DNA from: Mobula hypostoma
Lineage: Eukaryota
Length of the DNA: 64,000 nt
Direction of reading: 5' to 3'
Assembly: GCF_963921235.1 (NCBI RefSeq)
Contig: NC_086097.1
Coordinates: forward strand, 43,650,001 to 43,714,000
Below the pieces are notes generated by a model that made no database searches, was not told the DNA's origin, and saw only the letters and a list, made by a program, of their open reading frames with translations. The translations under genes and the position numbers were made by a program. Positions 9,806-54,620 of the stretch are shown here, piece after piece. Each line of letters starts with the position of its first letter. Position 1 is the stretch's first letter.

Positions 9806-10379
9806 AAACACAAAATACTCTGCAGATGCTGGGGCAACACTCACAACATGCTGGAGGAACTCAGCAGGTCGGGCAGCATCTGTGGAAATGATCAGTCAAC
9901 ATTTCGGGCCGGAACCCTTTGTCAGGACTGAAGAGGGAAGGGGCAGAGGCCCTATAAAGAAGGTGGGGGGAAGGTGGGAAGAAGGCTGGTAGGTTCCAGG
10001 TGAAAAACCGGTAAGGGGAAAGATCAAGAGGTGGGGGAGGGGATAGGCAGGAAAGGTCAAGAAGGAATAGGGGAAAACACAATGGGTAGTAGGAGGCGGA
10101 ACCATGAGGGAGGTGATAGGCAGCTGTGGGAGGGGGCAGAGTGAAATAGGGATAGGGGAAGGGAGGGGGAGGGAATTACTGGAAGTTGGAGAATCCTATG
10201 TTCATACCAAGGGGCTGGAGACTACCTGGACGGTATATGAGGTGTTGCTCCTCCAACCAGAGTTTAGCCTCATCATGGCAGTAGAGGAGGCCATGTATGG
10301 GCATATCCAAATGGGAATGTGATCTCCCCCTCCTTTCCGTTATCCCTATTTCACTCTGCCCCCTCCCCCAGCTGCCCAT
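9806..10379 (-). mobile_element. Penelope-like element 3' fragment (second subfamily) with an inverted terminal segment and a CpG-decayed hammerhead
   Basis: Minus-strand ORF ..DMPIHGLLYCHDEAKLWLEEQHLIYRPGSLQPLGMNIGFSNFQ matches the C-terminus of the 788-aa ORF. About 10324-10379 is an inverted copy of about 10117-10170. Confidence 0.85.
9893..9930 (-). ncRNA. Degenerate minimal type I hammerhead ribozyme
   Basis: CAGTC CTGACAA A GGGT TCCG GCCC GAAATGTT GACTG: stems I and II intact; core changes are CpG-type transitions. Confidence 0.65.
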
Positions 10380-12466: not shown

Positions 12467-12992
12467 TGCTAGAATAAAAGGCAAGGCTAACAGATTTAGG
12501 AAAGCTTGCTTATCGAAAAATATTGAGGCCCTAGTAAAGAAAAAGGATGTGCATACCAGGTATAGGAAGTTAGAATCAAATGAGGCACTTGAGTAAGAGA
12601 GAACACAAAGAGAGAAATCAAGAGGGCTAAAAGAGAATACAAGGTTGCTCTGGCAGACAAGGTGAAAGAGAATTGAAATGCTTTCCAGAGGTATAGTAAG
12701 AGCAAAAGTTGGTCCACCTGACGATCACCATGGTCATCTCTGCCTGGAGCCAAAAGAGATGGAGGAGATCTTAAATGATTTTTTTTTGCACCCATTTTTA
12801 CTTAGGAGACAAGGACAGGGACTATAGAATGGAGGCAGAAGAGTAATGACGTCATGGGCCAGAGTACTGAGTACAGGAGTTGGGATGTTGTTGAAGTTGT
12901 ATATTGGTGAGACCAAAATTTGGAGTTTTATGTGCCGTTCTGGTCACCTATCTACAGGAAAAATATCAACAAGATTGAAAGAATACAGCGAA

Positions 12993-13375
12993 TTGTTTGT
13001 TATGTCTCCCCGCCCGCTAGGAAAATCTCTTTCTCCCTTATTAGGGAGAGAGAACCTGTGGTATGTCCAATACCAGGTGAAACTCGATTTCTTTGGGGTA
13101 CTGCAAGTCTGTGTCTTTGCTATTGCTTTGCTCACGCTTGAGTGCTCGGTGGTGGTGCCAATGCTTTTTTTTGCCCGCTGAAGGAGGGGATTGCTGCTCG
13201 CTGCCACCTACACACGGGAGGGGAGAGCGGGGGGGGGTGGATCTTTGGGGTTCTAAGATTTAACTGTCATTCATTCTTTGGGGCTCGTTTTTGTGGATGG
13301 TTGCGAAGAAAAAGCATTTCAGGATGTATATTGTATACATTCTCTGACATTAAATTGTACCTTTGAACCTTTGAA
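12993..13375 (+). mobile_element. Unclassified retroposon 3' end inserted in the CR1
   Basis: Interrupts CR1 coding continuity and ends in ATTAAA plus a tandem (cctttgaa)2 tail. Confidence 0.5.
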
Positions 13376-24350: not shown

Positions 24351-24481
24351 GAAACAAGAGAAAATCTGCAGATGTTGGAAATCTGAGCAACACACACAGA
24401 ATGCTGGAGGAACTCAGCAGGTCAGACAGCATCTATGGAAAAAAGTAAGTAATGTTTCAGGCCGAAACCCTTCAGCAGGAG
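24351..24481 (-). mobile_element. 131-bp Penelope-tail insertion beginning at a decayed hammerhead
   Basis: 9-bp TSD tcatgaact (24342-24350 and 24482-24490). Minus strand reads CTGCTGA A GGGT TTCG GCCT GAAACATT, then the PLE tail. Confidence 0.8.
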
Positions 24482-25207
24482 TCATGAACTTAAGATTTTT
24501 GAACTTGTTTCTAATAAAAATCAGACAGCATGAATAAAAGTACTCATGCATTTAATTCTTCTGCCAGATTTATATGACAAACATAATTTGCACTAAGAAT
24601 ATATTTTAGTAGAGAAGGGAAGATAGGAGCTAGGAGTTTGAAAGGACTGTAAAATAATTTCACTACCTCAGTGTAGTAAAATATAAATTGATAAAATTTA
24701 CACTATTTACCCATGATGCCACTTTCTAGAAATTATAAACCTGTTTTCCCAGGTCTCTTTATTCCACCGCACAGCGTTACCATTCACTGTATATGTGATA
24801 CCCTGGTTTGTCCATTTAAAGTGCAACACCTTACACTTGCCTGTGTTAAATTTCACCTGCCATTTTTCAATCTATTTTCCCAGCTAGTAAAGATCATGCT
24901 GCAAACTTTGATGGCCTTGGGTGTCATGTGCAAATATGCTCAATTTTTAGTTCCCCTTTCCCGGAGTAAAGACTGTTGTTAGCTTCAGATTATATTTCTC
25001 CTTTTAATATCACAACAAAATTATAAGTCTGGTTTCTAGACTGATAACAATGGGAAAGCACTTGTGCTTGAAACATCTAACTGCTCCCCCCCCAAAAAAA
25101 AATCTAGAGTGAGATCTTTCCTGTAGGATATGAATGTTCAGAAAGCTACAAAATCACTTATTTTTCTGGTGACGTTGCTCAAGTAGAGAATATTAGATTA
25201 TTTAATA

Positions 25208-25742
25208 GTTGAGTGGTGCCACAACAACAACCTTTTACTCAATGTCAGCAAGACCAAGCAGCTGGTTACTGACTTCAGGAGGAGGAATCCACAAGCCCAT
25301 GAGCCAGTTCTCACTGGGAGATCAGAGGCAGAGAGGGTTAGCAACTTTAAGTTCCTCGGTGTCATCATTTCAAAAGGACTTGTACCGGCTCAGCATATAA
25401 GCGCAATTACGAAGAAAGTACCGCAACGCCTCTACTTCTTTAGGAGTCTGTTAAGATTCAGCATGACATCTAAAATTTTGACAAACTTTTGTAGTTCTGT
25501 GGTGGAGAGTATATTGACTGGCTGCATCACAACCTAGTATGGAAACACAAAAGCTCTTTAATGGAAAATGCTACAAGTAGTAGTGAATACGGTCTAGTCC
25601 ATCACAGGTAAAGCTCTCCCACCAAGTACTGTCACAGGTAAGCAGCATCCATTATCGGGGACCTCCACCACCCAGGTCATGCTCTCTTCTCACTGCTGCC
25701 ATCAATAAGGTGATATAGAAGTGTTAGGACTCACACCACTGG
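25208..25742 (+). mobile_element. Rex1/Babar-like LINE RT C-terminal fragment
   Basis: WCHNNNLLLNVSKTK..TDFRR and KKVPQRLYFFRSLLRF..VVESILTGCIT motifs, frameshifted. Confidence 0.75.
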
Positions 25743-28965: not shown

Positions 28966-29150
28966 AAACAACAGGAATTCTGCAGATGCTGGAAATTCAA
29001 GCAACACACATAAACAACAGGAATTCTGCAGATGCTGGAAATTCAAGCAACATATATCAAAGTTGCTGGTGAACGCAGCAGGCCAAGCAGCATCTACAGG
29101 AAGAGGCGCAGTCGACGTTTCAGGCCGAGACCCTTCGTCAGGACTAACTG
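28966..29150 (-). mobile_element. About 185-bp Penelope-tail insertion with an intact hammerhead and a tandemly duplicated 46-bp terminus
   Basis: Near-identical to 49347-49485. 28966-29011 is repeated at 29012-29057. Flanking TSD cctac/ttggtga (28954-28964 and 29153-29163, 10/11). Confidence 0.9.
29110..29145 (-). ncRNA. Minimal type I hammerhead ribozyme
   Basis: AGTC CTGACGA A GGGT CTCG GCCT GAAAC GTC^GACT; identical to 49445-49480. Confidence 0.82.
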
Positions 29151-39907: not shown

Positions 39908-39998
39908 CAAACAAGAGAAAATCTGCAGATGCTTGAAATCCAAGCAACGCTCAGAAAATGCTGCCTGGCCTGCTGAGTTCCTCCAGCATTGTGTGCGC
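39908..39998 (-). mobile_element. 91-bp Penelope-tail insertion with internal inversion
   Basis: Perfect 15-bp TSD gatgcacttagttag (39893-39907 and 39999-40013); the two halves of the tail are in opposite orientations. Confidence 0.85.
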
Positions 39999-41066: not shown

Positions 41067-43712
41067 CATAGAAAACATAGAACATAGAAAGCCTACAGCA
41101 TAATACAGGCCCATTGGCTCACAAAGTTGGGCCGAAATTACCTTAGAAATTAGGGTTACCCATAGCCCTCTATTTTTCTAAGCTCCTTGTACCTATCCAA
41201 AAGTCTCTTAAAAGACCCTATCATATCTGCCTCCACCACACGCATTCACCATTCTCTGCATTAAAAAAAAACTTACCCCTGACATCTCCTCTGTACCTGC
41301 TCCCAAGCACCTTAAACCTGTGCCCTCTTGTGGCAGCCATTTCAGCCCTGGAAAAAAGCCTCTGACAATCCACACGATCAATGCCCCTCATCATCTTATA
41401 CACCTCTATCAGGTCACCTCTCATCCTCCGTCGCTCCAAGGAGAAAAGGCCGAGTTCACTCAACCCGCCTTCATAACGCACGCTCGCCAATCTAGGCAAC
41501 ATCGTTGTAAATCTCCTCTGCACTCTTCCTACAGTTTCCACATCCTTCCTGTAGTGAGGTGACCAGAACTAAGTACAGTACTCCAAGTTGGGGTCTGACC
41601 AGGGTCCTATATAGCTACAACATTACCTCTCGGTTCCTAAATTCAATTCCACAATTGATGAAGGCCAATGCACCGTATGCCTTCTTAACCACAGAGTCAA
41701 CCTGTGCAGCTGTTTTGAGCATCCTATGGACTCGGATCCCAAGATCCCTCTGATCCTCCACACTGCCAAGAGTCTCATCATGACAAAGCTATGCTGACTA
41801 TTCCAAATGTTCATAAATCCTGCCTCTCAGGATCTTCTCCATCAACTTAACAACCACTGAAGTAAGACTCACTGGTCTATAATTTCCTGGGCTACCTCTA
41901 CTCCCTTTCTTGATTAAGGGAACAACATCTACAACCCTCCAATCCTCTGGAACCTCTCCCGTCCCCATTGATGATCATTGCCAGAGGCTCAGCAATCTCC
42001 TCCCTTGCCTCCCACAGTCGCCTGGGGTACATCTCATCCGGTCCCGGCGACTTATCCAACTTGATGCTTTCCAAAAGCTCCAGCACATCCTCTTTCTTAA
42101 CATCTACATGCTCAAGCTTTTCAGTCCGCTGCAAGTCATTACCACAATCACCAAGATCCTTTTCTTAATGAATACTGAAGTAAAGTATTCATTAAGTAAC
42201 TCTGCTATTTCCTCCGGTTCCATACACACCTTCCGACTGTCACACTTGATAGGTCCTATTCTTTCACGTCTCATCCTCTTGCTCTTCACATACTTGTAGA
42301 ATGCCTCGGGGTTTTCCTTAATCCTGCCTGCCAAGGCCTTCTCATGACCTTCTGGCTCTCCTAATTTCCTTCTTAAGCTCCTTCCTGTTAGCCTTGTAAT
42401 CTTCTAGATCTCTAACATTACCTAGCTCTCTGAACCTTTCGCAAGTTTTTCTTTTCTTCTTGACTAGATTTACTACAGCCTGTGTACACCACGGTTCCTG
42501 TACCCTACCATAACTTCCCTGTCTCACTGGAACATACCTATGCAGAATTCCACACAAATATCCCCTGAACATTTGCAACATTCCTTCTGTACCTTTCCCT
42601 GAGAACATCTGTTCCCAATTTAAGTTTCCACATTCCTGTCTGATAGCCTCATAATTCCCCTTACTCCAATTAAACGCTTTTCTAACTTGTCTGTTCCTAT
42701 CTCTCTCCAATGCTATTGTAAAGGAGATAGTGATCATAATTCTATCCCCAAAATGCTCTCCCACTGAGAGATATGACACCTGACCAGGTTCATTTGCCAA
42801 TACCAAATCAAGTACAGCCTCTTCTCTTGTGGGCTTATCTACATATTGTGTCAAGCAATCTTCCTTAACACACCTAACAAACTCCACCCCATCTAAGCCC
42901 CTCGCTCTAGGGAGATGCCAATTGATATTTGGGAAATTAAAAACTCCCACCACGACAACTGTTATTATTACACCTATCCAGGATCTGTTTCCTTATCTGC
43001 TCCTTGATATCCCTGTTACTATTGGGCGGCCTATAAAAAACACCCAGTAGAGTTATTGACCCCTTCCTGTTCCTAACCTCCACCCACAGAGACTCCGTAG
43101 ACAATCCATGACGTCCAACTTTTCTGCAACCGTGACACTATCTCTGATCAACAGTGCCACGCCCCCACCTTTTTTGCCTCCCTCCCTATCCTTTCTGAAA
43201 CATCTAAAACCTGGCACTTGAAGTAACCATTCCTGTCCCTGAGCCATCCAAGTCTCTGTAATGGCCACATCATAGCTCCAAGTATTGATCCACTCTCTAA
43301 GCTCATCCGCTTTGTTCACAATACTTCTTGCGTTAAAATAGACACAACTCAAATTGTCAGTCTGAGCGCATCCTTTCTCTATCACCTGCCTATCTGCCCT
43401 CACGCACCGTTTCCAAGCTTTCTCTATTTGTGAGCCAACTGCTTCTTCCCCAGTCTCTTCAGTTCGGTTCCCACCCAACAATTCTAGTTTAAGCTCTCCC
43501 CAGTAGCCTTAGCAAACCTCCCCGTAATGATATTGGTCCCCTGGGATTCAAGTGCAACCCGTCCTTTTTGTACTTGTCACACCTGCCCCAAAAGAGGTCC
43601 CAATGATCCAGAAATCTGAATCCCTGCCCCCTGCTCCAATCTCTCACCCACACATTTATCCTCCACCTCATTCTATTCCTGCACTCACTGTCACGTGGCA
43701 CAGGCAGTAATC
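41067..43712 (-). mobile_element. CR1 LINE with ORF1 esterase remnant, APE endonuclease and partial RT (internally deleted)
   Basis: GFRFLDHWDLFWGR..KKDGLHLN (SGNH/GDSL-like ORF1); YFNARSIVNK, AITETW, GGGVALLIR (APE); KSPGPDEMYPR; (ttctatg)n tail at about 41067-41090. Confidence 0.9.
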
Positions 43713-46833: not shown

Positions 46834-49444
46834 AACATCTTTTGGTAATTGTTTGAATAAATGCACTGCAGCACATTTTTTAAACTTGGACCACTAATAC
46901 CCAACTTTCAGGAGATACATGTTCACGGACATCATTACATTTATGAAAATCAGCTAAATTTTCGTCAACAAAATGTGATTAAAAGTGGATCAAAATGAAT
47001 TATACCATTTTAATTTACAGCACATTATTTTTTTTCTTTGTAATGCCAAAATAACCACCACTCAAACAAAAACCTCTTTGCTCAGTCTCTTTATTACTCA
47101 ATTCAAACTGAAGCCGCTGTTGAAGGCTGGACAGGAGAACAACAAATGAGGTAGATTATACTTGCATTTCTTTCTTATGTATTATGACAAATGCTGACAA
47201 AACTGAATTGTTAAATTAAAATCTGCCTTTGCCTTGAGATTGGAGCCAAAATTTTACATCATAGAAAACTTACAACACAGGTGACATCAATTCAGCCCAT
47301 TCTGTCAATGCTGGGGTTGGGGGGAAGGGAGGAAATAATCATTATTCTAACTAAAATCTCACAATTAACTCAGACTTGGCAATATGTAGGAGTACAAGAG
47401 ACTACAGAAAAAAAAGAGGGCTATACAGTAGGGAGATTCTAGGCAGTTTCTAGAGTAGGGTACATGGTCGGCATAACAATATGGGCTGAAGGACCTGTAA
47501 TGTGCTGTAGATTTCTATGTTTCTAGAGTCAAAACTGACAGGAATTTTATGTGAAAGGAGACAACAATGTGATCACATTTAACAATTCACTAGTTTATTT
47601 CCCTTCTAACCCCTTCCCTCAGGAGGTTTTTTTAAAAAAATCAGTTATGACATATTTTTAAATGTTATTTCTTATAACTGACAATAGCTTAATAATCATG
47701 TGGGTTGTAGCCTGAGGAGTAGGGCGGGGGATCATGAAAAACTTTATTCCATCACACAGGTGAAGAGCATCTTTACAAATGAAATCAGTTGCTCAGGATT
47801 GTCCGAGTACACATGATCTGATCTCATCTTGGCTCATCTCTCTTGGGGTTCATCAACATCCTTTATAATCTTCAGTCAGTAAACTAAATTATGGAGGATG
47901 CAGTGATAGCATAGGCTTAATCTCTTTGCTTGGATGTACTACTATCAATGATAAGCAACTTTACTGAAATATTCCAGAAATTCTGAAGGTGGCTTGATTA
48001 CCACAGATGTAGTTGGCATATCAATTACAATTTTACTGGTAGATTGTTAGGAACTTCTGGAGATGTGCTCTAACCCATGAGCTTCTCCCAAAGTTATCAC
48101 AAGCAACCAGGAGGAACTCCCACTGAAATTATAACAACACCTCAAGACAAGACCAAAATTTATTTTTCAGAAGCATGGTAATTTTTAAACAGTCAAAAAA
48201 CTTTTGTTCAGTTAAGAGCAGTGAATTGTTTGATGTGGCAATATATCCAACATAATAAAAGTTTACAACATAATCTACTGGATCAGCAATACAAAAACAA
48301 TTTATACCAATCTGAGTCAAGAGACCTCATTCTTTGCATAAACACAATGAACAAAATGTTAAACAGAATAGTCTGGTTTAAGTAAGTTTGTCTTAAAACT
48401 AAAAATTGTGGGTAAGTTATGGTAAACAAAACTATGAAGCAAATTTTAATAATGTGACTAACTACTGCCAAATGAACACAATAATTCTAGTATCAGTAGT
48501 ATGTATGCATTCTTTGAAGATTGAGATGAAAGAGTATAACGTCAAAAAGGCATTTTTACAAATTAAAAAGAAACCTAGATGGCTAATGCATTTAAGTTTC
48601 TTTCCAATTGAACCAAAATCCCATATACTTGATTTAACATTGGATGCATTTTCATGTAGTCCCTCAATCATTTTGTATAATGTGTTACTTGTTTTATTAC
48701 CTGCTTGTTAAAAACAAAATGCATTTTAGTTCCTAAGCATTTTGTAACTATTCCATTTCTTATGGGGTTGAATATGAAGTCCTAATTACCTTCCATCATT
48801 TACCAGTCATATTTCACTTTTTCCACTATTTATTAAAGGATTCTATGATCAGGAATATACTACATTAGTTTCTTATTTTAAGCAAGCAAACGCCGGTTTC
48901 ATTCTTTCACAACCCAGGTGTTACAAATCCTTTGGCTAGTACTTTTACACATGGCTTTAGCAGGAAATGGAACACCTCGTTCCTGTTGTTTCCTATCATA
49001 CCTACACCCTTACACCCTTTCATGCCAGAAAAACACTCCTGACATACAAAACAGCAATTCACATGGACTTTCTCCAATCGAGTATAACATGCTCAATCTT
49101 CAAAGCAATCTGCTCTATATTAGGAAGTCCAAATGTAGACTAAGTGATTACTTCAATAAACAGCAGCATTACCTGCAAGGGTGATAAGAAAGACTCAGTA
49201 ATTATTTTCATTTTTACTACCCATTTTTGGTACTTTTGGAGTATGTTTCAAAACTATTTGAATGGTCACCAATTTTATATTTCTGCTCCCTGAAATAGAT
49301 TACACCCATAGTATTGACATGGGTACAATCTATCTGAGGGGACAGAAAACAACAGGAATTCTGCAGATGCTGGAAATTCAAGCAACACACATCAAAGTTG
49401 CTGGTGAACGCAGCAGGCCAAGCAGCATCTATAGGAAGAGGCGC

Positions 49445-49480
49445 AGTCGACGTTTCAGGCCGAGACCCTTCGTCAGGACT
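49445..49480 (-). ncRNA. Minimal type I hammerhead ribozyme; predicted cut after GUC, between 49449 and 49448
   Basis: Stem I AGTC/GACT, core CUGACGA, stem II GGGU/GCCU with a CUCG loop, GAAA, and a loopless palindromic stem III ACGU. Confidence 0.85.
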
Positions 49481-49769
49481 AACTGAAGGAAGAGTGAGTA
49501 AGGGATTTGAAAGCTGGAGGGGGAGGGGGAGATGCAAAATGATAGGAGAAGACAGGAGGGGGAGGGATAGAGCCGAGAGCTGGACAGGTGATAGGCAAAA
49601 GGGGATACGAGAGGATCATGGGACAGGAGGTCCGGGAAGAAGGGGGGGGGGTGACCCAGAGGATGGGCAAGAGGTATATTCAGAGGGACAGAGGGAGAAA
49701 AAGGAGAGTGAGAGAAAGAATGTGTGCATAAAAATGAGTAACAGATGGGGTACGAGGGGGAGGTGGGGC

Positions 49770-52136
49770 CTAGCGGAAGTTAGAGAAGTCAATGTTCATG
49801 CCATCAGGTTGGAGGCTACCCATACGGAATATAAGGTGTTGTTCCTCCAACCTGAGTGTGGCTTCATCTTTACAGTAGAGGAGGCCGTGGATAGACATGT
49901 CAGAATGGGAATGGGATGTGGAATTAAAATGTGTGGCCACTGGGAGATCCTGCTTTCTCTGGCGGACAGAGCGTAGATGTTCAGCAAAGCGGTCTCCCAG
50001 TCTGCGTCGGGTCTCACCAATATATAAAAGGCCACATCGGGAGCACCGGACGCAGTATATCACCCCAGTCGACTCACAGGTGAAGTGATGCCTCACCTGG
50101 AAGGACTGTTTGGGGCCCTGAATGGTGGTAAGGGAGGAAGTGTAAGGGCATGTGTAGCACTTGTTCCGCTTACACGGATAAGTGCCAGGAGGGAGATCAG
50201 TGGGGAGGGATGGGGGGGACGAATGGACAAGGGAGTTGTGTAGGGAGCGATCCCTGCGGAATGCAGAGAGAGGGGGGGAGGGAAAGATGTGCTTAGTGGT
50301 GGGATCCCGTTGGAGGTGGCGGAAGTTACGGAGAATAATATGTTGGACCCGGAGGCTGGTGGGGTGGTAGGTGAGGACCAGGGGAACCCTATTCCTCGTG
50401 GGGTGGTGGGAGGATGGAGTGAGAGCAGATGTACGTGAAATGGGGGAGATGCGTTTAAGAGCAGAGTTGATAGTGGAGGAAGGGAAGCCCCTTTCTTTAA
50501 AAAATGAAGACATCTCCCTCGTCCTAGAATGAAAAGCCTCATCCTGACAGCAGATGCGGCGGAGACGGAGGAATTGCGAGAAGGGGATGGCGTTTCTGCA
50601 AGAGACAGGGTGAGTAGAGGAATAGTCCAGATAGCTGTGAGAGTCAGTAGGCTTATAGTAGACATCAGTGGATAAGCTGTCTCCAGAGACAGAGACAGAA
50701 AGATCTAGAAAGGGGAGGGAGGTGTCGGAAATGGACCAGGTAAACTTGAGGGCAGGGTGAAAGTTGGAGGCAAAGTTAATAAAGTCAACGAGTTCTGCAT
50801 GCGTGCAGGAAGCAGCGCCAATGCAGTCGTCGATGTAGTGAAGGAAAAGTGGGGGACAGATACCAGAATAGGCACGGAACATAGATTGTTCCACAAACCC
50901 AACAAAAAGGCAGGCATAGCTGGGACCCATACGGGTGCCCATAGCTACACCTTTAGTTTGGAGGAAATGGGAGGAGCAAAAGGAGAAATTATTAAGAGTA
51001 AGGACTAATTCCGCTAGATGGAGCAGAGTGGTGGTAGAGGGGAACTGATTAGGTCTGGAATCCAAAAAGAAGCGTAGAGCTTTGAGACCTTCCTGATGGG
51101 GGATGGAAGTATATAAGGACTGGACATCCATGGTGAAAATAAAGCGGTGGGGGCCAGGGAACTTAAAATCATCGAAAAGTTTAAGAGCGTGAGAAGTGTC
51201 ACGGACATAGGTCGGAAGGGATTGAACAAGGGGTGATAAAACAGTGTCGAGGTATGCAGAAACGAGTTCGGTGGGGCAGGAGCAAGCTGAGACAATAGGT
51301 CTGCCAGGACAGGCAGGTTTGTGGATCTTGGGTAGGAGGTAGAAACGGGAAGTGCGGGGTGTGGGAACTATAAGGTTGGTAGCAGTGGATGGGAGATCCC
51401 CTGAGCGGATAAAGTCGTTGATAGTGTGGGAGACAATGGCCTGGTGCTCCTTAGTGGGGTCACGATCGAGGGGTAAATAAGAGGAGGTATCCGCGAGTTG
51501 TCGCTGTGCCTCGGCAAGGTAGAGGTCAGTACGCCAGACTACAACAGCACCCCCTTTATCAGTGGGTTTAATAATAATGTTAGGATTAGTGCGGAGGGAG
51601 TGGAGAGCAGAGCGTTCCGAAGGAGTGAGGTTGGAATGGGGACAAGGTGCGGTGAAGTCGAGACGGTTGATGTCCAGTCGGCAGTTGGCAATAAAGAGAT
51701 CCAGAGCAGGCAGAAGACCAGAGCGGGGTGTCCATGAAGAAGAGGAGGGTCGAAGACGGGAGAAGGGGTCATCGGTGGGGGTGGAAGGGTCCTTGCCGAA
51801 GAAGTAGGCTCGGAGACGGAGACGGCGGAAGAAAAGTTCCGCATCGTGGCGAACACGGAACTCGCTGTGGTGTGGGCGAAGGGGGACAAACGTGAGGCCC
51901 TTACTGAGAACAGAGCGTTCTGCCTCCGACAGTTGAAGGTCGGAGGGGATGGTAAAGACCCGGCACGGATGAGAGCTGGGATCAGAGGGGGGAGGGGGGA
52001 GGCTGGGGGTGTCAGTGGAGAGGGGAGGGTTGGGGTGAGAGAAAGATGGAGCCTCTGAGGGCCCAGGAGCTGACGGTGGGATCTGAGGAAGACGGGGCTG
52101 CGGAGTGGTGGTGGGGGAAGGGGAGACGGGAGTCAC
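49770..52136 (-). CDS. Penelope-like reverse transcriptase plus GIY-YIG endonuclease
   Basis: IIKPTDKGGAVVV, FYLLPKIHK..PGRPIVS, MDVQSLYTSIP, GVAMGTRMGPSYA, YIDD, LPFLD; Cys linker CKRNKCYTC; VIYCVRCSRCGLLYIGET..RFAEH. The ORF starts at GTG with an in-frame stop just upstream, so the true start is uncertain. Confidence 0.93.
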   Translation of the reverse strand: MTPVSPSPTTTPQPRLPQIPPSAPGPSEAPSFSHPNPPLSTDTPSLPPPPSDPSSHPCRVFTIPSDLQLSEAERSVLSKGLTFVPLRPHHSEFRVRHDAELFFRRLRLRAYFFGKDPSTPTDDPFSRLRPSSSSWTPRSGLLPALDLFIANCRLDINRLDFTAPCPHSNLTPSERSALHSLRTNPNIIIKPTDKGGAVVVWRTDLYLAEAQRQLADTSSYLPLDRDPTKEHQAIVSHTINDFIRSGDLPSTATNLIVPTPRTSRFYLLPKIHKPACPGRPIVSACSCPTELVSAYLDTVLSPLVQSLPTYVRDTSHALKLFDDFKFPGPHRFIFTMDVQSLYTSIPHQEGLKALRFFLDSRPNQFPSTTTLLHLAELVLTLNNFSFCSSHFLQTKGVAMGTRMGPSYACLFVGFVEQSMFRAYSGICPPLFLHYIDDCIGAASCTHAELVDFINFASNFHPALKFTWSISDTSLPFLDLSVSVSGDSLSTDVYYKPTDSHSYLDYSSTHPVSCRNAIPFSQFLRLRRICCQDEAFHSRTREMSSFFKERGFPSSTINSALKRISPISRTSALTPSSHHPTRNRVPLVLTYHPTSLRVQHIILRNFRHLQRDPTTKHIFPSPPLSAFRRDRSLHNSLVHSSPPSLPTDLPPGTYPCKRNKCYTCPYTSSLTTIQGPKQSFQVRHHFTCESTGVIYCVRCSRCGLLYIGETRRRLGDRFAEHLRSVRQRKQDLPVATHFNSTSHSHSDMSIHGLLYCKDEATLRLEEQHLIFRMGSLQPDGMNIDFSNFR

Positions 52137-52289
52137 AACAGCAGCACATCAAGACCCGGCCTGGTGTTCAAGGCTGGAGTTGCAGTTGGTGGTTGCGTAA
52201 TCACTTCGAATGTGTCCATGGTCGTTGCTGGAGTCCGGGTTTTGAATATGTCCTGAGGTGTTGGAGGGGACAGAAGTAGGGTAGTGCTT

Positions 52290-53405: not shown

Positions 53406-54620
53406 GAACAGTGATAGGTGAAGCCAGGTAGGTAGGAAGGGTAAAGGGCTGGAGAGGAAGGAATCTGTTAGGAGAAGACAGTGGACCATAGGAGAAAGGG
53501 AAAGACGAGGGGCACTAGGGAGGCTATGGACTGGCACATCAGAACGGGAACTGGAATCTGAATTAAAATGTTTGACCACTGGGAAATTCCATTTTTGGCA
53601 GATGGAGCGGAGGTGCTCAATGAAGCGGTCCCCCAAATTACATTGGGAGCACTGGACGCAATAGATGACCCCAGCAGATTCACAGGTGAGGTGCTGCCTC
53701 ATCTGGAAGGACTGTTTGCGGCCCTGAACAGGGGTGAGAGATGAAGCCAATGGGCAGGTATAGCATTTTGGCTGCTTGCAGGGATTAAGTGCTCGGAGGG
53801 AGATTAGTGGGGAGGGACGAATAGACAAGGGACTTATGGAGGGAATGATCCCTGCAGAAAGCAGAGAGATGGGGACAGGTAAAGATATGCTTGGTAGTAG
53901 GATCCCTTTGGAGATGGCAGAACTGTGGAGAATAATGTGTTGGATGCAGAGGCTCAAAGGTTAGTAGGCAAGGACAAGAACAACTAAACAACAGGAATTC
54001 TGCAGATGCTGGAAATTCAAGCAACATACATCAAAGTTGCTGGTGAACGCAGCAGGCCAAGCAGCATCTATAGGAAACGTCGACTGCGCCCCTTCCTATA
54101 GATGCTGCTTGGCCTGCTGCGTTCACCAGCAACTTTGATGTATGTTACAAGAACAACTATTTCTGTTAAGGGAGCAGGAAGATGGAATAAGGATGGATGT
54201 TCAGGAAATGGAACAGATACGGGTGAGGATAGCAACAATGATGGTGGAAGGGAAACCCTGGTCTTAGAAGGACAACATCTCTGATGTCCTGGAAAAGAAA
54301 GCTTCATCCTGGGAACAAGATGGTGGAGACAAAGGAATTGAAAAAGGGGAATTGCATTTTTACAGGAGACAGGGTGGAAAGAGGTAAAGTTAAGATAGCT
54401 GTGAGAATCTGTAGGTTTATAGAAGATGCTGGTCAACAGTTTATCTCCAAAGATGGAAACAGAAAGATCAAGAAAGGGGATGGGAGGTGTCAGAAATGGA
54501 CCAAGTGAATTTAAAGGACAGGTGAAAGTTGGAGGCAAAGTTAATGAAATTGACAAGCTCAGCACAGGTACATGAAGCAGCACCAATGCTGTCGTCAACT
54601 TAGTGGTGGTGTTGGGGATC
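53406..54620 (-). mobile_element. Older Penelope-like fragment interrupted by a younger PLE-tail insertion
   Basis: PFLDLSVSI..YKPTDSHSYL, CKQPKCYTC and AGVIYCVQCSQC, frameshifted. Confidence 0.88.
53987..54146. mobile_element. 160-bp Penelope-tail insertion containing a perfect 54-bp inverted repeat
   Basis: 13-bp TSD acaagaacaacta (53974-53986 and 54147-54159); arms 54023-54076 and 54093-54146 with a 16-nt spacer. Confidence 0.92.

Follow-up and report, generated by a model that had tools for sequence, protein, structure and literature searches.

The locus and its host element

The window, by which we mean the whole 64,000-nucleotide stretch of Mobula hypostoma DNA analysed here, contains on its minus strand a 5'-truncated copy of a Penelope-like element (PLE) that carries a minimal type I hammerhead motif in its 3' terminal repeat (pLTR), ~100 nt inside the 3' end of the element (Table 1). 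This copy represents ~2.9 kb of a unit of ~3.5 kb and shares 98% identity with the long copies L050 and L056; it lacks their 5' terminal repeat and their N-terminus and has a single hammerhead. Its 792-aa frame, which is closed on the upstream side by an in-frame stop and ends ~290 nt upstream of the hammerhead, contains the RT motifs DKG, GVAMG and YIDD as well as the linker CKRNKCYTC at residue 659. Pfam matches to RVT_1 (E 3.9e-05) and GIY-YIG (E 8e-04) both fell under the curated cut-offs, and a PDB sequence search with the frame returned no match at E up to 1. A CX2-5CxxC linker between RT and EN is described for the Neptune and Nematis clades (PMC8557442). Judged by its sequence, the host is a Neptune-type Penelope-like retrotransposon, the type being read from a linker shared with Nematis, and it appears to have been very active recently.

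Table 1. Features of the hammerhead locus and related copies in the window. Positions on copies are numbered from the first base after the predicted cut (+1).
Feature	Coordinates	Strand	Evidence or remark
5'-truncated Penelope-like element copy	49348..52263	-	12-bp TSD at 49336-49347 and 52264-52275
Stop-to-stop frame, 792 aa: RT, CX4CxxC linker, C-terminal GIY-YIG	49770..52148	-	ORF, Pfam, motif location
PLE 'tail', ~36 nt, bounded by the two favoured 3' ends (near +65 and +102)	49348..49384	-	3' ends of 30 anchored copies
Minimal type I hammerhead motif	49445..49480	-	Direct read, descriptor match, genome-wide exact 34-mer matches
Helix I, 4 bp	49477-49480 with 49445-49448	-	AGUC/GACU; one additional U-G pair possible (4-5 bp)
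Core CUGACGA	49470-49476	-	Direct read
Extra A, one base 5' of helix II	49469	-	Direct read
Helix II, 4 bp, CUCG loop	49457-49468	-	Direct read
GAAA	49453-49456	-	Direct read
Loopless ACGU palindrome	49450-49453	-	Direct read
C17, end of GUC cleavage triplet	49449	-	Predicted cut between 49449 and 49448
+1, first base after predicted cut	49448	-	Direct read
Short 139-bp young-subfamily copy	29012..29150	-	97.8% identity to the 49445 copy
Older-subfamily copy with hammerhead remnant at 9893-9929	9806..10323	-	Sequence comparison
Older-subfamily short copy with hammerhead remnant at 24451	24352..24481	-	Sequence comparison, 9-bp TSD
Two-armed (inverted) short young-subfamily insertion	53987..54146	.	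13-bp TSD; 3' half of hammerhead only

Direct reading of the minus strand from 49480 to 49445 reproduced exactly the sequence and coordinates given for the motif in the preliminary description of this locus. A minimal-hammerhead descriptor matched two sites in the 64-kb window, at 49445 and 29110, and none in 200 shuffles of 64 kb each that approximately preserved dinucleotide composition. A loose core pattern by itself was not above chance, with four matches in the window and this number reached in 18 of 100 shuffles. In addition, the hammerhead family was absent among the eight matches of an Rfam scan at E up to 10, and the isolated 36-mer folded no better than its shuffled versions (z -0.37). 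A chance likeness to a hammerhead inside a repeat could account for such a loose pattern, an ordinary fold energy and the missing Rfam match; it is nevertheless highly improbable, given that the full descriptor never arose in the 200 shuffles and that the motif lies where PLE hammerheads are described. Since Rfam gave no match and helix III has no loop, we regard the motif as a loopless minimal hammerhead ribozyme (min-HHR) rather than a canonical Rfam type I hammerhead. Its first helix II pair (10.1-11.1) is G-U in the 49445 copy, whereas G-C is the form in the min-HHR definition.

Other copies and features in the window

The hammerhead of the short copy at 29012..29150 (positions 29110-29145) is identical to the 49445 motif, including an exact 34-mer at 29111-29144 that occurs twice in the window and in none of 100 shuffles. 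The 5' end of this copy lies 36 nt upstream of the cut site, and its tail is doubled in tandem (28966-29014), as though both RT start sites had been used. The two older-subfamily copies carry remnants of the motif. At 9893-9929, helices I and II are kept, the loop reads UCCG, G8 is changed to A and ACGU to AUGU, and this remnant is predicted to be inactive. At 24451, A6C is combined with a UUCG loop and ACAU in place of ACGU, and helix I is absent, because the insertion boundary (9-bp TSD, 24482-24490) removes the 5' arm and leaves the 5' end of the copy 30 nt upstream of the cut site. The statement in the preliminary description that these four copies keep their stems holds for the identical 49445 and 29110 motifs, both with CUCG loops, and for stems I and II at 9893, but the cores at 9893 and 24451 are broken, and the 24451 copy has no helix I.

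The two-armed insertion at 53987-54146 lies within a PLE relic of older age (53519-54605). It forms a perfect inverted repeat, to which sub-threshold, false Rfam miRNA matches are due. Another older short PLE end, at 39908-39998, is apparently two-armed as well, with a 15-bp TSD and no hammerhead. A Pfam scan of 20 of the 32 long frames in the window identified no host exon. A 117-aa stop-to-stop frame at 12828-13181 (plus strand), with a sub-threshold match to Herpes_U15 (24.8 bits against a cut-off of 25; E 3.9e-05), may be a spurious repeat-derived frame, and the frames at 25187-25537 (plus) and 43053-43508 (minus), which match ALKBH8_N and Exo_endo_phos, are most likely LINE fragments.

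Folding and predicted activity

In a nearest-neighbour model, which does not include tertiary contacts, the best fold of the monomer is a non-hammerhead hairpin in which the GACG of the core pairs with CGUC and the cleavage triplet is hidden (-11.0 kcal/mol, as opposed to -7.0 kcal/mol with helices I and II only). Similarly, a nested double-hammerhead model reaches -11.5 kcal/mol, compared with -30.3 kcal/mol for the best, inactive dimer. Stability drops by 1.4 kcal/mol in an alternative register that uses the extra A for a closing A-U pair. The predicted disadvantage of the active fold fits the low or protein-dependent activity reported for related motifs: a single min-HHR showed no cleavage and dimers and trimers showed low cleavage (PMC4209133), and the hammerhead of the anole PLE, the one studied biochemically, was cut only with protein and was unnecessary for insertion (PMC11167929).

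The preliminary description had classified the motif as a PLE minimal type I hammerhead that needs a dimer to cleave, which agrees with both the min-HHR definition (PMC4209133) and the location in a pLTR. Its further proposal, that the RNA is functional and processes PLE transcripts by cleaving itself, is for the family a hypothesis, genomic copies mostly reading through the cut site. In the 49445 copy, self-cleavage appears unlikely, because this copy is 5' truncated, contains one hammerhead and has its nearest same-strand partner in the window 20.3 kb away. No tandem repeat was found at the site, and the copy is most likely inert.

On the 3' side of the hammerhead (49358-49430, minus strand), AGAUGCUG is predicted to pair with CAGCAUCU to form a hairpin that encloses a shorter, variable stem; the prediction holds for young copies and the 9893 copy. 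It may serve as a protein-binding or RT-start structure.

Sequence conservation and covariation

The preliminary description had further held that the structure is conserved across subfamilies. We aligned 30 copies from young and old subfamilies, having set aside 19 of 40 older-anchor loci, mostly truncated within the motif or heavily rearranged. The stems proved to be kept in sequence, with 85% of the cells forming pairs, but without covariation: two-sided change occurred in only 1 of 11 pairs, in a single cell, and the covariation score of 0.173 compares with 0.183 in shuffles, 377 of 500 of which scored as high, in a test of low power that draws on one genome, related subfamilies sharing their stem sequence and neutral decay. 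With no compensatory signal and broken cores in two of the four copies originally cited, the claim of structural conservation was overstated.

Helix I can be extended beyond AGUC/GACU by a U-G or a C-G pair. Among 60 young copies that could be compared without gaps (out of 100 anchored arms, the others being truncated or gapped), position 11.1 is U in 47, giving a G-U wobble, and C in 13, giving G-C, so that pairing is kept either way. Position 7 is U in five of the 60 and varies between C, U and A among subfamilies, and every other motif position is changed in at most seven copies, mostly through CpG decay. The extra A before helix II is present in 59 copies, as is C15.2 of the palindrome, and G16.2 in 54; other frequent variants lie outside the motif, at +6, +7, +18 and +28. 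A CpG just beyond helix I has been lost in major lineages, and the CpG-prone bases G8, G12, C15.2, G16.2, C17 and G1.1 remain in the majority. This pattern is suggestive of selection on master elements combined with neutral decay of their copies. In the older subfamilies, position 7 is U or A and loop II reads CUCG or UUCG; one group also carries A6C. Members of this group (core CUGC, mostly with a UUCG-type loop II) include L097, L104, L128 and the window copy at 24451-24481; in L120 and L121, the core reads CUGU. A natural A6C hammerhead variant is known to have low activity (PMC3088659). The fixation of C11.1U in the youngest subfamily and the presence of A6C in an old one suggest that catalysis is under weak constraint. 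Moreover, sequence blocks on the 3' side of the motif match it in their degree of conservation between subfamilies, so that conservation alone is no proof of catalysis.

These observations could also be explained by a vestigial, non-catalytic hammerhead, or by a motif that has taken on another role, as a protein-binding or RNP-assembly signal or as part of an internal promoter. The two substitutions just mentioned, the absent covariation and the disfavoured active fold in the nearest-neighbour model all agree with such a loss of catalysis, and the clustering of 5' ends at the first base of the motif, described below, could mean a promoter. However, variation in the master lineages falls on positions that hammerheads tolerate (position 7, the loop II bases and the 11.1 wobble), the CpG-prone core bases have been kept in the majority, and cleavage has been reported for related min-HHRs, either in multimeric form (PMC4209133) or in the presence of protein (PMC11167929). 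On this evidence, we consider a vestigial or repurposed motif quite unlikely.

Copy number and tandem arrangement

The 34-nt motif has 45,139 exact matches in its own genome (3.48 Gb), compared with none for a reversed-pattern control. The corresponding numbers are 85,845 for a 26-mer just downstream of the motif, 18,500 for a 24-mer of the older subfamily, 1,304 for a 35-mer from the 5' part of the ORF and 552 for the junction between tail and ORF. A similarity search of the genome with the 216-bp end, by a tool that passes over very common words, gave no match. In 12 of 30 loci anchored in the 5' ORF, a further copy of the 3' end adjoins directly upstream; a second motif is included in 11 of the 12. 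In such long tandem copies, the second hammerhead lies ~3.5 kb upstream on the same strand, in line with a unit of ~3.5 kb (two of the matches listed on contig C2 are spaced 3,515 bp apart). Their frame is open from ~60 nt past the cut site, and the likely ORF start follows the motif at a distance of 60-140 nt. As in other PLEs (PMC8557442, PMC11167929), pLTRs arise from partial tandems, 5' arms can be inverted, and a tail of 30-40 bp occurs.

One locus, L227 (G000:C2:157816600-157817750), is a head-to-tail array with a 310-bp unit (from about -30 to +283 relative to the cut) and three hammerhead motifs. It is retrozyme-like, and every unit begins at the 5'-end hot spot considered in the following section.

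Ends of the copies

The 3' ends of 30 anchored copies, as placed by crude ungapped extension, fall into two groups, with 15 at +55 to +69, 14 at +101 to +113 and a single one at +75. Loose contig ends coincide with both preferred sites, although the contigs concerned are assembled sequences whose RNA nature is a guess and which are uninformative on expression, RNA ends or cleavage. The PLE tail has been tied to two RT start sites (PMC11167929). Because the copies read through the cut site to the two tail ends, the insertion templates must have been either uncut or re-ligated at the hammerhead; as far as genomic copies record it, the template RNA of the majority of insertions was evidently intact at this position.

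The 5' ends were determined for the first 100 listed matches to a downstream anchor, all of them in the first 3.5 Mb of one contig. Thirty-eight of these arms reach past -95. Another 14 stop between -34 and -29, where helix I begins on its 5' side and 2.0 ends were expected; a flat-hazard scan simulation gave a p of 0.0016 for so dense a 6-nt window, which was picked post hoc and in which both arms of some inverted insertions are counted. By a 10-mer test, eight of the ends between -29 and -36 did not fall in the inverted class. Around the cut site itself (-2 to +3), five ends were observed versus 2.4 expected (p 0.10). Similarly, none of 40 long junction-bearing copies (out of 100 listed) started within 4 nt of +1, whereas eight started at -27 to -50.

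Apparent 5' junctions across the whole genome gave a related picture, with 161 at -48, 494 at -32, 95 at -15, 77 at -1, 363 at +1 and 137 at +3. Each pattern consisted of five non-matching bases followed by an intact body, and the patterns were unequal in length and degeneracy (the -48 count is inflated by two free positions, and the body at -32 was stricter), such that only large ratios are meaningful. Inspection of the first 100 junctions at +1 by eye identified 50 of microhomology type, namely inversions made through the complementary strands of helix I and deletions from one GAC word to another. At -32, junctions of this type made up about 27 of the first 100, and at -1 they were 21 of the 77. 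With these classes removed, the excess at +1 amounts to ~1.3-3 fold over the controls, and that at -32 stays larger. The small excess at +1 would be compatible with cleavage of ~1% of the templates or with microhomology alone. The bases upstream of the -32 junctions are diverse, element-derived microhomology classes aside. Loose contig ends cluster at -30 (16 contigs in one contig set, run X3), which likely reflects the genomic junctions themselves. Collectively, these data point to the first base of the ribozyme, not the cut site, as the main 5' boundary of the copies.

The origin of this boundary may be explained in several ways. We tentatively favour, at slightly less than even odds, run-off at a transcription start located at the first base of the ribozyme. 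In young and old subfamilies alike, the hot-spot site fits the initiator consensus YYANWYY, which is very degenerate. In D. virilis, the pLTR of Penelope contains an internal promoter that lacks a TATA box (PMC2377424). Stalling or release of RT after helix I, or a preference for microhomology, could also produce the hot spot. A hairpin in the cDNA that shields its 5' end is not favoured, as the antisense DNA folds weakly (-2.8 kcal/mol).

Two places, one immediately 5' of helix I and one at +20, have a pyrimidine tract with an AG. The second tract, which ends in YAG ~20 nt past the cut (49428-49440, minus strand), is splice-acceptor-like and kept in most copies of each subfamily, its sequence differing between them. 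Helix I is also where an intron of the D. virilis element ends (PMC4209133). None of the 15 joints listed, out of 56, represented a GT..AG skip around the motif, and we tentatively set aside a splice acceptor at helix I in view of this result, the diverse flanks of the -32 junctions and some short copies, such as the one at 24451, that directly abut their TSD at this site.

The distribution of ends also bears on a model in which cleavage is obligatory. The hammerheads of the two pLTRs would cut as an intramolecular dimer, and the released unit-length RNA would be circularised and serve as the template; as proposed in PMC4209133, re-ligation would restore the motif and mask the cut in the copies. 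Read-through at the cut site is equally expected from such a circle, which would moreover suit the two motifs 3.5 kb apart in tandem copies, the modest excess of +1 junctions and the 310-bp array with its three motifs. A circle, however, has no 5' end, yet the 5' ends cluster 29-34 nt upstream of the cut, as would fit a linear RNA that starts there or on which RT stalls. Furthermore, in vitro insertion by the anole PLE was unchanged by hammerhead mutations, and no RNA-seq reads started or ended at its cut site (PMC11167929), and Naiad PLEs thrive without canonical hammerheads (PMC8557442). Obligatory cleavage followed by circularisation therefore seems unlikely to us.

Discussion

Our results argue for a min-HHR in the pLTR of a Neptune-type PLE whose cutting is minor or late, with most insertions derived from uncut template, a reading to which we assign a probability of roughly 0.7. 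According to this reading, and in keeping with established work, a single copy would be unable to close helix III, and cleavage would require two motifs that pair through their ACGU palindromes. A tandem element would supply them from its 5' and 3' pLTRs, which lie 3.5 kb apart, and the reaction would probably be slow and aided by the element's own protein. Cutting would not be the source of template for most insertions; reverse transcription would instead begin at the two downstream tail sites and read across the motif, which would be uncut (or re-ligated). The motif would be maintained through selection on active masters, with the genomic copies, including the one at 49445, being passengers that decay by CpG mutation. 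The excess of +1 junctions (363, compared with 77, 137 and 95 at control positions) suggests that cutting is not wholly irrelevant.

It is tempting to go further and regard the copies as a fossil record of RNA ends, in which transcripts start at helix I, short copies spin off, and ~1% of the templates are cleaved and lose a capped leader. We rate this scenario as doubtful, but its implications are worth stating. RT starting at the nearby 5' tail site would yield SINE-like copies of 100-140 nt, the smaller peak at the cut site would record in vivo cleavage of ~1% of the templates, and cleavage would remove just a capped leader of ~31 nt; its role would be that of a switch for decapping or attenuation, not the excision of units from a long transcript. 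A comparable analysis of RNA ends from PLE copies was not found in the literature searched, and the pile-up of 5' ends at the edge of helix I is possibly a new side result.

By itself, the motif adds little, because PLE min-HHRs have already been described from fishes, the coelacanth, amphibians and reptiles. The value of the family lies in its use as a test bed for the in vivo role of PLE hammerheads, which PMC8557442 calls unclear. The family offers at least 45,000 motifs of near-identical sequence, natural tandem arrays and several hundred pLTR-ORF junction copies, so that insertion junctions can be read for RNA ends with high statistical power.

Comparison with known systems

By its structural features, the motif belongs to a known kind, the min-HHRs of PLEs (Cervera and De la Pena 2014, PMC4209133), which are defined by an extra base between positions 9 and 10.1, a palindromic 15.2-16.2 segment, a G10.1-C11.1 pair and covariation. 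Common to both are the conserved core (CUGANGA ... GAAA ... UH), the type I topology without a helix III loop, the palindrome, the extra base before helix II, a helix I of 4-5 bp, the location in pLTRs, and the prevalence of single motifs on truncated copies together with close opposite-strand pairs. Helix II, in contrast, has 4 bp here and 7-8 bp in the Schistosoma example, and its first pair is G-U in most young copies, as opposed to G-C. The sequence of the motif is very uniform here and heterogeneous there, and its copy number is higher than the 4,000 reported for the coelacanth and the 9,000 for Xenopus, numbers obtained by different counting methods. A likeness by description also exists to the small PLE hammerheads of Lunse, Weinberg and Breaker (via the review PMC6765202), which have a very short palindromic stem III and cleave as dimers. 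The work of Lunse et al. with its supplements, the supplement of PMC4209133 or those of bioRxiv 10.64898/2026.07.22.740005 may already list this hammerhead family. A literature search for Penelope hammerheads in sharks surfaced only one review, in which 'shark' refers to the shape of a fold.

Non-LTR retrozymes, reported in one chondrichthyan genome (bioRxiv 10.64898/2026.07.22.740005), share type I hammerheads in short PLE-derived units, as does the L227 array. They form tandem arrays, whereas the 49445 copy stems from a coding PLE, and most copies of the family are dispersed singles or inverted pairs. We therefore rejected this classification for the 49445 copy, a single coding PLE fragment with no tandem repeat at its site; L227, located elsewhere, fits it.

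A further counterpart is PAc, the Poseidon element of Anolis carolinensis (Frangieh et al. 2024, PMC11167929). In both systems, the pLTR carries a hammerhead, two sites of RT initiation lie downstream of it and delimit a tail of 30-40 bp, elements are arranged in tandem, and the template is apparently uncut RNA. They appear to differ in clade, given the CX4CxxC linker of Neptune and Nematis in the element described here, and in the position of the ORF start, which lies inside the hammerhead in PAc and probably downstream of it in the present family.
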